From the sequence record MZ234035.1: 64,000 nucleotides of DNA. One strand, given 5' to 3'. Made by a program: the position numbers and the translations under genes. The DNA comes from Escherichia phage vB_EcoM-G3F7. The notes beneath the pieces were generated by a model. That model was not told the origin of the DNA and searched no databases. It saw only the letters and a program-made list of their open reading frames with translations. Positions 43,451 through 48,740 of the stretch are shown in pieces (the first letter of the stretch is position 1; each line of letters opens with the position of its first letter).

Positions 43451-43588
43451 TTTACAGAAGGGTAGTAGTGTGATACTATTACCCTATCAAAACTAATGGA
43501 GAAAAGAAAATGTTCGCACCTTATATTATGGCAGCAGTTATGTTGGTCTGTTTATATCTTTTGATTAAAGCTTGCTAAGGAGAATAAA

Positions 43589-43831
43589 ATGAGATTACAA
43601 CGCCAGAGCATCAAAGATTCAGAAGTTAGAGGTAAATGGTATTTTAATATCATCGGTAAAGATTCTGAACTTGTTGAAAAAGCTGAACACCTTTTACGTG
43701 GCATGGGATGGGAAGATGAATGTGATGGGTGTCCGCTTTATGAAGACGGTGAAAGCGCAGGATTTTGGATTTATCACTCTGACGTCGATCAGTTTAAAGC
43801 TGATTGGAAAATTGTGAAAAAGTCTGTTTAA
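43589..43831 (+). CDS. Hypothetical protein (80 aa)
   Basis: Track ORF, ATG after AAGGAGA. Confidence 0.5.
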   Translation: MRLQRQSIKDSEVRGKWYFNIIGKDSELVEKAEHLLRGMGWEDECDGCPLYEDGESAGFWIYHSDVDQFKADWKIVKKSV

Positions 43832-43841
43832 GGAAAATAAT

Positions 43842-44671
<830 letters not shown>

Positions 44672-44691
44672 AATAACACGTGGCGGAAAAT

Positions 44692-45039
44692 ATGAATTTT
44701 AATTATTACCCTATTCTATTAGAAAAAGACACGAAACAGCCAAAGTGGCAGGGTCCTCAGTTTATTAAAGGTGTCTATCAATTAGTAGTTCCTAAAGACA
44801 AGATTTATAGCAGTTGTTTCACTGAATCCGCTTGCAGTATTTTCGGTAATAGTTCTCTGTATTGGAATTTTGACATAAAGCTGGATAGAAATATCGATAT
44901 TTGGTTGAAAGCTATGGATATTGGTAATATCACGTTTGATGAGAATAATTATCATATTATTGGTCGCTTTTCCAAACGCGGTAAAGAATTATATTTCACG
45001 CCTGAAATTGAGAGAAAATTTGATGCTAAACCGTATTGA
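44692..45039 (+). CDS. Hypothetical protein inserted between frd and td (115 aa)
   Basis: Track ORF 44680..45039 starts GTG; ATG at 44692; no recognisable domain. Confidence 0.5.
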   Translation: MNFNYYPILLEKDTKQPKWQGPQFIKGVYQLVVPKDKIYSSCFTESACSIFGNSSLYWNFDIKLDRNIDIWLKAMDIGNITFDENNYHIIGRFSKRGKELYFTPEIERKFDAKPY

Positions 45040-45084
45040 TTATTTAGCTTCATAAAATGTATTATAATTTATATAAGGTACTAA

Positions 45085-45945
45085 ATGAAACAATACCAAG
45101 ATTTAATTAAAGACATTTTTGAAAATGGCTATGAAACCGATGACCGAACAGGCACAGGAACAATTGCTTTGTTCGGTACTAAATTACGTTGGGATTTAAC
45201 TAAAGGTTTTCCTGCGGTAACAACTAAGAAGCATGCATGGAATGCATGCATTGCTGAGCTTCTATGGTTTATTTCCGGTTCTACCAATGTTAATGATTTA
45301 CGTCTTCGCACACATGGTAGTCTTATTCAAGGTAAAACTATTTGGGACGATAACTATGAAAACCAGGCTAAAGACCTAGGATATCATAGTGGTGAACTTG
45401 GTCCTATATACGGTAAACAATGGCGTGATTTCGGCGGCGTGGATCAATTAGTTGAAACTATTGATCGTATTAAAAAATTACCAACTGATCGACGTCAAAT
45501 CGTTTCAGCATGGAATCCAGCTGAAATCAATCAAATGGCATTACCACCCTGTCATATGTTCTATCAGTTTAATGTGCGTAATGGTTATTTGGATTTGCAG
45601 TGGTATCAACGATCAGTAGATGTTTTCTTGGGCTTGCCATTCAACATTGCCTCGTACGCTGCCTTGACGCATATTGTGGCTAAGATGTGTAATCTTATCC
45701 CAGGAGATTTGATATTTTCCGGTGGTAATACTCACATCTATATGAATCATACTGAGCAATGTAAAGAAATTTTACGTCGTGAGCCTAAAGAACTGTGTGA
45801 ACTTAAAATTGATTGGCCTATAGAGTTTGGAAATTGTGACACCGAAACGCAGCTTTACTGGTTAACTGAATACATGAAACCGAAAGATTTTATCCTTGAA
45901 AATTATGAATCGCATCCAGCAATTAAAGGGAAAATGGCAATATGA
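45085..45945 (+). CDS. td: Thymidylate synthase Td, uninterrupted (no group I intron)
   Basis: 286 aa continuous ORF with TS active-site region PPCH; matches spliced T4 Td as recalled. Confidence 0.93.
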
Positions 45946-46205
45946 TTTTACGATTTAAAGATACTTCTGGCGTTGTTCTTTTTACACTTCCTAACCCAAG
46001 CGAGTTAGAAGTTCCAGGACCAGAACAGCCTATTACCATTTATGGTAAAAAATACTATACTCATAAAATGACTCGTGAGTATTTTGATAATAAAATTTCC
46101 ACAGTTAAAACTTCTTCTGACTGTTACTACGATATTACTGTTTTAACGGAAAAACAATATGACGAATTATTCCAGCGTGGGCCGTCTATGCCGGGTAGTG
46201 AATAA
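45942..46205 (+). CDS. Hypothetical protein (87 aa)
   Basis: Track ORF, ATGA overlap with td stop. Confidence 0.5.
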
Positions 46206-46485
46206 ATACAAATCCGACTTTGATGTTAATATTCACCGCGGTACATTTTGGGGAAATTACGTCGGTAAAGATGCTGGCAGCCGGGAGGCTGCCATTGAAT
46301 TATTCAAAAAAGATTTTATACGTCGAATTAAATCTGGAGAAATAACTAAAGCACATTTAGAGCCTTTACGTGGAATGAGGCTAGGATGCACATGTAAACC
46401 AAAGCCGTGTCATGGTGATATAATAGCTCATATAGTTAACCGATTGTTTAAAGACGATTTTCAAGTTGAGGACTTATGCAATTAA
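46159..46485 (+). CDS. Hypothetical protein (108 aa); start uncertain
   Basis: Track ORF overlaps upstream gene by ~47 nt. Confidence 0.4.
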
Positions 46486-48740
46486 TTAATGTTATCAAAA
46501 GTAGTGGTGTTTCTCAGAGCTTTGACCCGCAAAAAATTATTAAAGTTTTATCTTGGGCAGCTGAAGGAACATCAGTAGATCCTTATGAATTATATGAAAA
46601 TATTAAATCTTATCTCCGTGATGGAATGACAACTAATGATATTCAGACTATTGTCATTAAGGCTGCTGCGAATTCTATTTCGGTTGAAGAGCCTGATTAT
46701 CAATATGTAGCTGCACGTTGTTTAATGTTTGCTCTTCGTAAGCATGTTTATGGACAGTATGAACCACGTTCATTTATTGACCATATTTCTTACTGTGTAA
46801 ATGAAGGTAAATACGACCCTGAATTATTGTCAAAATATTCAGCAGAAGAAATTACATTTTTAGAATCAAAAATTAAGCACGAGCGGGATATGGAATTTAC
46901 TTATTCCGGGGCGATGCAATTAAAAGAAAAATATCTTGTTAAAGATAAAACCACTGGTCAAATTTATGAAACTCCACAGTTTGCATTTATGACTATTGGA
47001 ATGGCACTGCATCAAGATGAACCTGTTGATAGATTAAAACATGTTATCCGTTTTTATGAAGCAGTATCTACTCGACAGATTTCATTGCCAACTCCTATTA
47101 TGGCTGGTTGTCGTACTCCGACTCGACAGTTTAGTTCATGCGTTGTTATTGAGGCAGGTGATTCGCTGAAGTCTATCAATAAAGCTTCTGCTTCAATTGT
47201 TGAATATATTTCTAAACGCGCTGGAATTGGAATTAACGTAGGTATGATTCGTGCTGAAGGTTCTAAGATTGGCATGGGTGAAGTACGCCATACTGGTGTT
47301 ATTCCTTTTTGGAAACATTTTCAGACTGCAGTTAAATCATGTTCACAGGGTGGAATTCGTGGCGGCGCTGCTACTGCTTATTATCCTATTTGGCATTTGG
47401 AAGTTGAAAATCTTCTCGTTTTGAAAAATAACAAAGGCGTAGAAGAAAACCGCATTCGTCACATGGATTATGGTGTTCAGCTGAATGATCTAATGATGGA
47501 ACGATTCGGAAAGAACGATTACATTACTTTGTTCAGTCCACATGAAATGGGTGGCGAGCTTTATTATTCTTATTTTAAAGATCAAGACCGTTTCCGTGAA
47601 TTATACGAAGCAGCAGAAAAAGACCCTAATATTCGTAAAAAGCGTATTAAAGCCCGTGAACTATTTGAATTGCTCATGACTGAACGTTCAGGAACAGCAA
47701 GGATTTATGTGCAGTTCATTGATAATACGAATAACTATACTCCGTTTATTCGTGAAAAGGCACCTATTCGTCAGAGTAACTTGTGCTGTGAAATTGCTAT
47801 TCCAACAAATGATGTGAATAGCCCTGATGCTGAAATTGGATTGTGTACTCTTTCTGCATTCGTATTAGATAATTTTGACTGGCAAGACCAAGATAAAATT
47901 AATGAATTGGCAGAAGTTCAAGTTCGTGCTCTTGATAATCTTTTGGATTATCAAGGATATCCAGTTCCTGAAGCAGAAAAAGCTAAAAAGCGTCGTAACC
48001 TCGGTGTAGGTGTTACCAACTATGCAGCTTGGCTGGCAAGTAACTTTGCTTCTTATGAAGATGCTAACGATTTAACACATGAACTATTTGAGAGATTACA
48101 GTATGGACTCATTAAAGCATCCATTAAGCTCGCCAAAGAAAAAGGACCTTGCGAATATTATTCAGACACTCGTTGGTCTCGAGGCGAATTACCTATCGAC
48201 TGGTACAATAAAAAGATTGACCAAATCGCAGCTCCAAAATACGTTTGTGACTGGTCGTCGCTGCGGGAAGACCTTAAGCTCTTTGGCATCCGTAATAGCA
48301 CATTATCAGCACTTATGCCATGTGAGTCATCTTCCCAAGTTTCTAACAGTACAAACGGTATCGAGCCTCCACGTGGACCAGTCTCTGTTAAAGAATCAAA
48401 AGAGGGCTCCTTTAATCAAGTCGTGCCCAATATTGAGCATAACATAGACCTTTACGACTATACATGGAAATTAGCTAAGAAAGGTAATAAACCTTATCTT
48501 ACGCAGGTAGCTATTATGCTGAAATGGGTTTGTCAATCAGCTTCGGCGAATACATACTATGACCCCCAAATCTTCCCTAAAGGCAAGGTTCCAATGTCAA
48601 TAATGATTGATGACCTTTTGTATTTTTGGTATTTTGGCGGAAAAAATTTCTATTATCATAATACCCGCGATGGTTCTGGTACTGATGATTATGAAATAGA
48701 AACTCCAAAAGCTGAAGAGTGTTCATCCTGTAAATTATGA
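46476..48740 (+). CDS. nrdA: Aerobic ribonucleotide reductase large subunit NrdA
   Basis: 754 aa, class Ia RNR; matches T4 NrdA size and sequence as recalled. Confidence 0.93.
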   Translation: MQLINVIKSSGVSQSFDPQKIIKVLSWAAEGTSVDPYELYENIKSYLRDGMTTNDIQTIVIKAAANSISVEEPDYQYVAARCLMFALRKHVYGQYEPRSFIDHISYCVNEGKYDPELLSKYSAEEITFLESKIKHERDMEFTYSGAMQLKEKYLVKDKTTGQIYETPQFAFMTIGMALHQDEPVDRLKHVIRFYEAVSTRQISLPTPIMAGCRTPTRQFSSCVVIEAGDSLKSINKASASIVEYISKRAGIGINVGMIRAEGSKIGMGEVRHTGVIPFWKHFQTAVKSCSQGGIRGGAATAYYPIWHLEVENLLVLKNNKGVEENRIRHMDYGVQLNDLMMERFGKNDYITLFSPHEMGGELYYSYFKDQDRFRELYEAAEKDPNIRKKRIKARELFELLMTERSGTARIYVQFIDNTNNYTPFIREKAPIRQSNLCCEIAIPTNDVNSPDAEIGLCTLSAFVLDNFDWQDQDKINELAEVQVRALDNLLDYQGYPVPEAEKAKKRRNLGVGVTNYAAWLASNFASYEDANDLTHELFERLQYGLIKASIKLAKEKGPCEYYSDTRWSRGELPIDWYNKKIDQIAAPKYVCDWSSLREDLKLFGIRNSTLSALMPCESSSQVSNSTNGIEPPRGPVSVKESKEGSFNQVVPNIEHNIDLYDYTWKLAKKGNKPYLTQVAIMLKWVCQSASANTYYDPQIFPKGKVPMSIMIDDLLYFWYFGGKNFYYHNTRDGSGTDDYEIETPKAEECSSCKL

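Follow-up and report, generated by a model that had tools for sequence, protein, structure and literature searches.

An annotated gene in the frd–td slot

In phage T4, the genes encoding dihydrofolate reductase (frd) and thymidylate synthase (td) overlap by 4 nt (ATGA), with nothing between them. A small hypothetical gene at this junction is already known, annotated and common in relatives of T4; it is RB32ORF229c in phage RB32, whose record remarks 'flanked by 9 bp repeat', and it is named td.1 in the phage T2H record AY262132. PHROGs assigns a matching family, phrog_1928, which it lists as function unknown (E=1.2e-35, 123 bits, residues 8–115 of the td.1 product versus profile positions 2–125 of 126), and full-text literature searches returned no paper on td.1. 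Some GenBank records name a function, namely 'putative homing endonuclease' in the BASEL records MZ501113 (WilhelmHis), MZ501089 (KarlGJung) and MZ501047 (AlbertHofmann), and 'putative glucose-1-phosphate adenylyltransferase' in MN580668 (pSe_SNUABM_01). Sequence and fold give no support to either label.

The DNA analysed here, a 64,000-nucleotide stretch of Escherichia phage vB_EcoM-G3F7 (MZ234035.1; hereafter the window), is a segment of a Tequatrovirus genome, and its positions 44000–45200 are 100% identical to CHD94UKE2, G3F10, WilhelmHis (Bas35), UTI-E2 and Isf-Pm2. According to the open reading frame (ORF) list and the raw sequence, frd, td.1 and td are three consecutive genes on the + strand, with the following features:

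44087..44671, + strand: frd (dihydrofolate reductase), 194 aa; Pfam DHFR_1 (E=6.6e-19), phrog_316, and frd annotation in identical phage records
44665..44679, + strand: left copy of the flanking direct repeat, TAAATGAAATAACAC; 13/15 identical to 45082–45096, at a spacing of 417
44680..44691, + strand: 12-nt leader GTGGCGGAAAAT, with a Shine-Dalgarno-like GGCGGA for td.1 inside; from the left-junction comparison
44692..45039, + strand: td.1 (RB32ORF229c; phrog_1928), 115 aa, 13.7 kDa, pI 8.5; phrog_1928 match, identical GenBank proteins, dN/dS and an AlphaFold2 (AF2) model
45040..45084, + strand: 45-nt cassette-borne spacer; consensus scan, 'promoter' annotation in phage Lutter, and comparison with NHEP29
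45082..45096, + strand: repeat copy at the right end, TAAATGAAACAATAC, the functional start of td; T4, RB69 and QL01 have the identical sequence at their junctions
45085..45945, + strand: td (thymidylate synthase), 286 aa, uninterrupted; Pfam Thymidylat_synt (E=1.9e-95, full length)

The sequence-only reading had described an ORF of 115–119 codons separating frd and td, and its coordinates, length and peptide are right; the frame spans 115 aa from ATG 44692 or 119 aa from GTG 44680, and the interval 44672..45084 is exactly the gap from the frd stop (TGA, 44669–44671) to the td start. Its statement that the two genes overlap in T4 is also correct, and the same ORF is absent from the T4 junction. 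The window gene is an allele of the known hypothetical gene. Its protein is 100% identical to QXV85906.1 and several further GenBank accessions, and 96–98% identical to those of RB32ORF229c and T2H td.1 (ABI95053.1, ABI48932.1), which occupy the same frd–td position within the same flanking repeat and differ from it in nothing of substance.

ATG 44692 is likely the start codon of td.1, because GGCGGA lies at Shine-Dalgarno distance (5–10 nt) ahead of it and because it matches the start of the closest homologue, that of the metagenomic T4-like phage L013; the resulting 348-nt version is used in every GenBank record inspected. Among five copies (window, RB32, T2H, PhiZZ6 and NHEP29), pairwise dN/dS is 0.03–0.14 (Nei-Gojobori), with up to 30 synonymous versus 11 non-synonymous differences per pair, a substitution pattern indicating that td.1 is under strong purifying selection. 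In addition, the AF2 model of its product, built from a 48-sequence alignment, is confident (mean pLDDT 90.8, pTM 0.84). These selection values and the confident model, together with homologues at 26–66% identity in other genera, argue that td.1 is not a chance frame.

Two further features of the region were observed. An 81-aa ORF between frd.1 and frd (43842–44087, + strand; phrog_3183, RB32ORF231c) overlaps the frd start by ATGA and is absent from T4, which has only a 71-nt gap at that site. Public assemblies contain an in-frame Frd–Td.1 fusion of 316 aa (WP_146639004.1; ..SVYK-NEITRGGN-MNFNYY..; the region corresponding to window 44669–44692) and a Frd extended by 11 residues (204 aa), both the result of A runs that differ in length within the 20-nt spacer, and the fusion put td.1 and Frd into one 90% cluster. 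These forms may be real variants or homopolymer sequencing errors, and the fusion, which differs by homopolymer lengths only, was not relied on as Rosetta-stone evidence.

A polymorphic slot and a cassette exchanged between genera

The content of the frd–td slot varies among close relatives. Sixty rows, drawn at even steps through the 567 records matching the region, comprised 38 with td.1, 13 with a different 207-bp insert and two empty junctions (T4 and phage FN), the other seven being partial GenBank records or matches in other genera. A tblastn search with td.1 matched 580 phage records, 362 at ≥90% identity and 218 at 26–45%. Within Tequatrovirus, td.1 is present in about 356–362 records, the product of the 207-bp insert (68 aa, phrog_9550) at ≥95% identity in about 134, and the empty junction in about 2 of 53 sampled. 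With at least three alleles in this genus, the slot is a genuine hot-spot of exchange. The sequence-only reading had presented the ORF as an extra one inserted at a conserved junction. Such an insertion is neither unusual nor new: td.1 is the majority state in Tequatrovirus, is already annotated, and belongs to a family long resident in the slot. T4, the reference genome, holds the rare empty allele, and comparison with T4 alone makes a common gene look special.

The 68-aa phrog_9550 ORF, the third slot allele, is found in the Yersinia phage fPS-90 (L016:1266-1472) and also at L013:4670-4879 and L011:2148-2354, and it joins frd and td by seamless ATGA / TAATG overlaps. It shares 79–81% identity with its counterparts in Marfavirus and in a T4-like phage from metagenomic data, the latter having a Frd ~46% identical to that of the window, and 43% identical homologues occur in the unrelated Phapecoctavirus group. 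The label 'flagellar biosynthesis protein' that it bears in some records looks like a mis-annotation.

Mosigvirus is likewise polymorphic, RB69 and many others being empty and NHEP29, NHEP36, SF, Shf125875, F2 and AlbertHofmann harboring td.1. The Mosigvirus form is compact, its start overlapping the frd stop and only 13–15 nt separating it from td; comparison with NHEP29 shows that it has neither the 24-nt left leader nor a 30-nt piece of the right spacer. The td gene itself is variable in T4-like phages, being split in T4 by an intron encoding I-TevI, which also occurs in fPS-90, KMB39 and the IMG/VR contig L025, while the window td contains neither group I intron nor I-TevI. A strict mutual exclusion of td.1 and the td intron was considered and rejected, as all four combinations are seen, with both elements in KMB39 and L025, only the intron in T4 and only td.1 in the window.

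Alignment of the window, RB32 and T4 reveals a single clean indel of exactly 417 bp between the window and T4. Its ends form a direct repeat, TAAATGAAATAACAC (44665–44679) and TAAATGAAACAATAC (45082–45096), which is perfect over 9 bases and matches at 13/15, and the T4 sequence is regenerated exactly by dropping one repeat copy and the intervening DNA from the window. In the left copy, which extends over the frd stop, the sequence is ATG AAA TAA (44668–44676), a two-codon mini-ORF that corresponds to td codons 1–3 with CAA turned into a stop. The empty junction of T4 is shared base for base by Mosigvirus RB69 and Dhakavirus QL01 (..TA(T/C)AAATGAAACAATACCAA..), representatives of the genera nearest Tequatrovirus. 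The claim of an insertion at a conserved junction therefore holds insofar as a discrete 417-bp cassette distinguishes the window from the junction of T4, RB69 and QL01, and fails insofar as this state was taken to be unusual or new. With a repeat at both ends of the indel and empty sites in these three phages, the locus has the form of a target-site duplication. A 9-bp perfect repeat is within chance for the region, and the informative part is its position.

The cassette encodes no transposase, integrase or nuclease, its sole ORF, td.1, containing no such domain in Pfam, so its movement must use host or phage recombination. The 12-nt leader GTGGCGGAAAAT resembles the longer frd 3' tail of L013 and L014 (TGGTGAAAA(G/A)CG), two metagenomic T4-like phages in which the td.1 homologue overlaps frd, and is probably a remnant of a donor frd tail, judging from this likeness. 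On the other side of td.1, the spacer contains a sigma-70-like TTGATT-18-TATTAT/TATAAT at 45036–45068, a candidate promoter found by consensus scan, and the same stretch carries a 'promoter' annotation in phage Lutter; the Shine-Dalgarno sequence AAGG (45075–45078) lies eight bases before the td ATG. With these elements the cassette seems to give td its own start signals, replacing translational coupling to frd. An RNA element near frd–td was also considered and rejected, an Rfam search of 43500–46500 yielding one sub-threshold chance match only.

td.1 has been exchanged horizontally between Tequatrovirus and Mosigvirus, as judged from its synonymous divergence between the window and NHEP29 (dS 0.62), which is lower than that of the flanking frd (2.0) and td (1.2). 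Compared with L013/L014, td.1 is 63–66% identical at the amino acid level and Frd 46–51%; in all other genera, td.1 is more distant from the window copy than frd is. The window and RB32 differ little in frd (dS 0.12) and td.1 (0.05) but strongly in td (1.11), and the pattern is reversed between the window and PhiZZ6. These opposite patterns place a recombination breakpoint at or near the td.1/td border. Tequatrovirus contains two deeply diverged td alleles, those of the window and RB32 (L001:3585-4445) being 80.8% identical in nucleotides beside frd and td.1 genes that are 97–98% identical, and those of the window and PhiZZ6 (L020:1693-2553) being 97.6% identical beside frd genes at 90.3%.

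Overall, we lean, by a little more than an even judgement, towards td.1 being a functional, dispensable accessory gene of phrog_1928 that would have entered an empty junction as a cassette, spread by recombination and encode a binding protein. The series of events that we infer would begin with an overlapping frd/td junction (..TATAAATGAAACAATAC..) as the basal state of the slot in Tequatrovirus, Mosigvirus and Dhakavirus. A cassette consisting of a short donor frd-tail remnant, td.1, and a spacer in which a ribosome-binding site follows a promoter-like one would have been inserted directly after td codon 4 through recombination, either illegitimate or microhomology-mediated, duplicating the td start, and the left td-start copy would then have decayed to ATG-AAA-TAA. 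Ordinary homologous recombination between co-infecting phages would have spread the cassette, which probably also hitch-hiked on repair tracts begun by the nearby td-intron endonuclease I-TevI. Deletion between the repeats could remove it again and would produce the T4 junction exactly. From the position of the intron in T4 td, we take the I-TevI site to lie ~0.6 kb from the slot. Since co-conversion tracts can extend as much as 2 kb from the cuts of homing endonucleases (PMC2790892), intron homing should drag the donor's slot allele along over such a distance. The td.1 cassette would then be a clean natural case of a nuclease-less gene crossing phage genera beside a homing site.

The reverse direction, in which td.1 was ancestral in Tequatrovirus as the residue of a frd-ORF1-ORF2-(ORF3)-td array and was deleted via ATGA(AA) microhomologies in T4 and, independently, in RB69 and QL01, is a serious rival but rather unlikely. 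The family fills the slot in every other genus examined, td.1 is the commonest Tequatrovirus allele whereas the empty one is rare (~2 of 53 sampled rows), and the 68-aa allele is likewise bounded by ATGA/AATGA; deletion between the 9-bp repeats, moreover, gives the T4 sequence exactly. However, a base-for-base identical empty junction in three genera would take three identical deletions, and is more readily understood if the cassette entered an ancestral empty site. The left repeat with its decayed td codons 2–4 is most simply a duplication made on entry, and the leader GTGGCGGAAAAT, by its likeness to the L013/L014 frd tail, looks like donor sequence. The lower inter-genus dS of td.1 than of its flanks, and its identity to L013/L014, higher than that of Frd, also mean that it has moved horizontally at least once, and favor entry. 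The repeat alone is weak evidence for duplication, because its 9 perfect bp are mostly constrained by coding, the frd C-terminus dictating seven of them and the td start six; of the positions that follow, only 4/6 match. The two directions are partly compatible, since T4 could represent the secondary loss of an earlier insertion.

Family, predicted fold and possible roles of the td.1 product

Homologues of td.1 at 26–45% identity are present in Kanagawavirus, Jiaodavirus, Gelderlandvirus, Moonvirus, Winklervirus, Kagamiyamavirus and Marfavirus, and homologues overall span at least eight genera. In the other genera, a td.1 homologue and then a second ORF of ~115–125 aa come after frd, stop codons overlapping start codons. 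The second ORF is paralogous to td.1 (hhalign probability 99.4%, E=1e-21; phrog_1928 matches); the tandem paralogues are just 20–25% identical and have in common the motifs Q-K-x-W, H/K-G-[IVL]-Y and G-R-F-x-K-x-G. When all ORFs of the 27 family-bearing loci were scanned against the family HMM, Frd and Td, every family copy (46/46) lay between frd and td on the same strand, at 27/27 loci, each locus containing one to three of them. Searched exhaustively with the HMM, 1.84 billion representative proteins yielded only 20 genuine members, all of 95–116 aa; a word-indexed protein search with the single td.1 sequence found 3 relatives, and a profile search mainly returned the paralogous subfamily. 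Given the 46/46 copies in the slot and the 20 members in 1.84 billion, the family is tiny, restricted to T4-like phages and always located between frd and td. The largest array observed, on a metagenomic T4-like contig (L021:2245-3288; SRR28387184), comprises three tandem phrog_1928 paralogues (148, 106 and 95 aa), and a 76-aa phrog_8520 ORF is also present in the frd–td slot of this contig.

The predicted td.1 product is beta-rich with one helix (strands 6–12, 27–34 and 38–64, helix 68–76, strands 86–96 and 99–104). W19, G27, G91, K95 and G97 are invariant over 48 sequences of both paralogue groups, and L9, Q16, Y29, R92 and F93 nearly so. The absence of Asp, Glu, His and Cys from this set argues against an enzymatic role. 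Pfam contained no relative of the td.1 product or of its 48 aligned relatives, giving only scattered noise at E>0.01 (HlyIII, PapC_N), and NCBIfam, PADLOC and the PDB (by sequence and by profile) gave no match to the td.1 product. Foldseek of the model against the PDB gave a best E of 0.3, and the structure neighbours in BFVD were uncharacterised T4-like phage proteins only, none of them named. The order of strands and helix in the model is compatible with an OB-like barrel and is OB-like at best, the closest described counterparts being OB-fold nucleic-acid-binding domains (RecO N-terminal, Teb1/RPA, S1 and cold-shock domains, phage SSBs). If so, the conserved residues, placed by secondary structure alone, would sit where OB folds bind ligand, with Q16/W19 in the first loop, G27/Y29 on strand 2 and G91-R92-F93-x-K95-x-G97 in the last hairpin.

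Most likely, the td.1 product is a small protein that acts by binding rather than catalysis and is produced along with Frd and Td. Its binding face would be formed by the Q16/W19 loop, the G27-x-Y29 strand and the G91-R-F-x-K-x-G97 hairpin, and the variable middle (residues 35–65) would set specificity. Td.1 would be made early with Frd and Td, and its ligand would be either nucleic acid or protein, in the latter case one belonging to the host or to the thymidylate/folate branch. An integral role in Frd or Td function is opposed by T4 and RB69, which live without td.1.

The sequence-only reading had also pointed to a GVYQL...IYSS stretch as faintly GIY-YIG-like, and a free-standing GIY-YIG-like homing endonuclease that cuts empty junctions is what the BASEL labels imply. 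In its favor are those three GenBank annotations (WilhelmHis, KarlGJung and AlbertHofmann), the presence or absence of td.1 at a fixed site beside td, which is already the target of I-TevI, and the G-V-Y ... I-Y-S string in the window copy. The GIY and YIG motifs of such enzymes are 10–11 residues apart. In the td.1 family, however, only the first half is conserved (G27, Y29), and the family alignments show no conservation of I38-Y39-S40, which lies 8 residues away in the window copy, so the resemblance does not hold up. Among 48 family members there is no Pfam match to GIY-YIG, HNH or any other nuclease at E≤1, and the alignment of these sequences, invariant only at W, G, G, K and G, contains neither the invariant GIY-YIG catalytic set of Arg, Glu and Asn nor any invariant or near-invariant His, Asn or Cys that could serve as HNH ligands. 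The td.1 product has neither the alpha/beta GIY-YIG fold nor a separate DNA-binding domain; its 115 aa include no DNA-binding extension and amount to roughly half of a seg or mob protein, and its two or three translationally coupled copies per operon in other genera are unlike such genes. Sequence and fold effectively refute this function.

Counter-defence and partnership with the thymidylate enzymes are, we infer, two concrete versions of a binding role. As an anti-defence or host-takeover effector, Td.1 would be a small early protein neutralising a host factor, its copy-number variation and divergence reflecting an arms race. The presence/absence polymorphism in two genera and the exchange between genera are consistent with this, as are tandem paralogues only 20–25% identical at copy numbers of 0 to 3, a location in an early-gene cluster rich in small dispensable ORFs, and the lack of catalytic residues, which fits an inhibitor. 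However, the protein shows no likeness to any described anti-defence protein or fold (PADLOC, BFVD, Foldseek), no literature on such a role was found, selection in Tequatrovirus is purifying rather than diversifying (dN/dS 0.03–0.14), and so absolute a tie to one position, between frd and td over deep divergence, is atypical of counter-defence genes, usually found in variable islands; we regard such an effector as unlikely. That same tie, with 46 copies at 27 loci between frd and td and mostly overlapping stops and starts that imply co-translation, would suit a partner or regulator of the thymidylate branch, acting either as an adaptor that docks Frd and Td into the complex for dNTP synthesis or, by binding RNA, on the translation of td. 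The OB-like strand order of the model, with conserved aromatic and basic residues in its putative ligand loops, and the 316-aa Frd–Td.1 fusion in public assemblies point the same way. Nevertheless, T4, RB69, QL01 and the ~134 Tequatroviruses with the 68-aa allele keep the same enzymes without td.1, td.1 copy number varies, and the fusion, differing by homopolymer lengths in the 20-nt spacer only, may be a sequencing error. Because gene order is generally conserved in the T4 nucleotide-metabolism cluster, synteny alone is a weak argument, and a dedicated thymidylate partner appears distinctly unlikely.

A broader proposal, quite improbable as it stands, is that phrog_1928 represents an unrecognised small beta fold for the thymidylate node, binding Frd, Td, their mRNA or a host factor that attacks the node (for example, a defence sensing or blocking phage dTMP/folate metabolism), and that td.1 is a nuclease-less cassette of this fold spread in trans by I-TevI-initiated gene conversion. 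Such a fold would explain why the frd–td position has stayed fixed over deep divergence despite churning copy number and sequence, and if td.1 modulates or protects thymidylate synthesis it would be a new player in a classic pathway. The residual interest of td.1 is modest and lies in a tiny, phage-only family with a confident fold but without structural or functional relatives, which is tied to the DHFR–thymidylate synthase pair in all T4-like lineages possessing it.

Comparison with described mobile genes and slots

The seg and mob cassettes of T4-like phages, such as mobE between nrdA and nrdB, are also small optional genes located between conserved genes of nucleotide metabolism. Like them, the td.1 cassette is polymorphic among close relatives, lies at a mosaic boundary and is exchanged between phages, and it may carry its own promoter-like sequence. 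Unlike them, td.1 encodes no nuclease domain, motif or fold and is half the size, and in other genera its family has long occupied the slot as part of an operon; in addition, its cassette has a target duplication at its ends, a feature that homing does not leave behind.

The frd–td slot as a whole resembles the hyperplastic or accessory small-ORF slots of T4-related genomes described by Petrov et al. 2010 (PMC2993671) in that its content varies (0–4 small ORFs) between flanking core or quasi-core genes. It differs from these slots (PMC2993671) in being one gene wide in Tequatrovirus and, whereas their cargo is unrelated, in being filled across genera from phrog_1928, the 68-aa phrog_9550 and phrog_8520.
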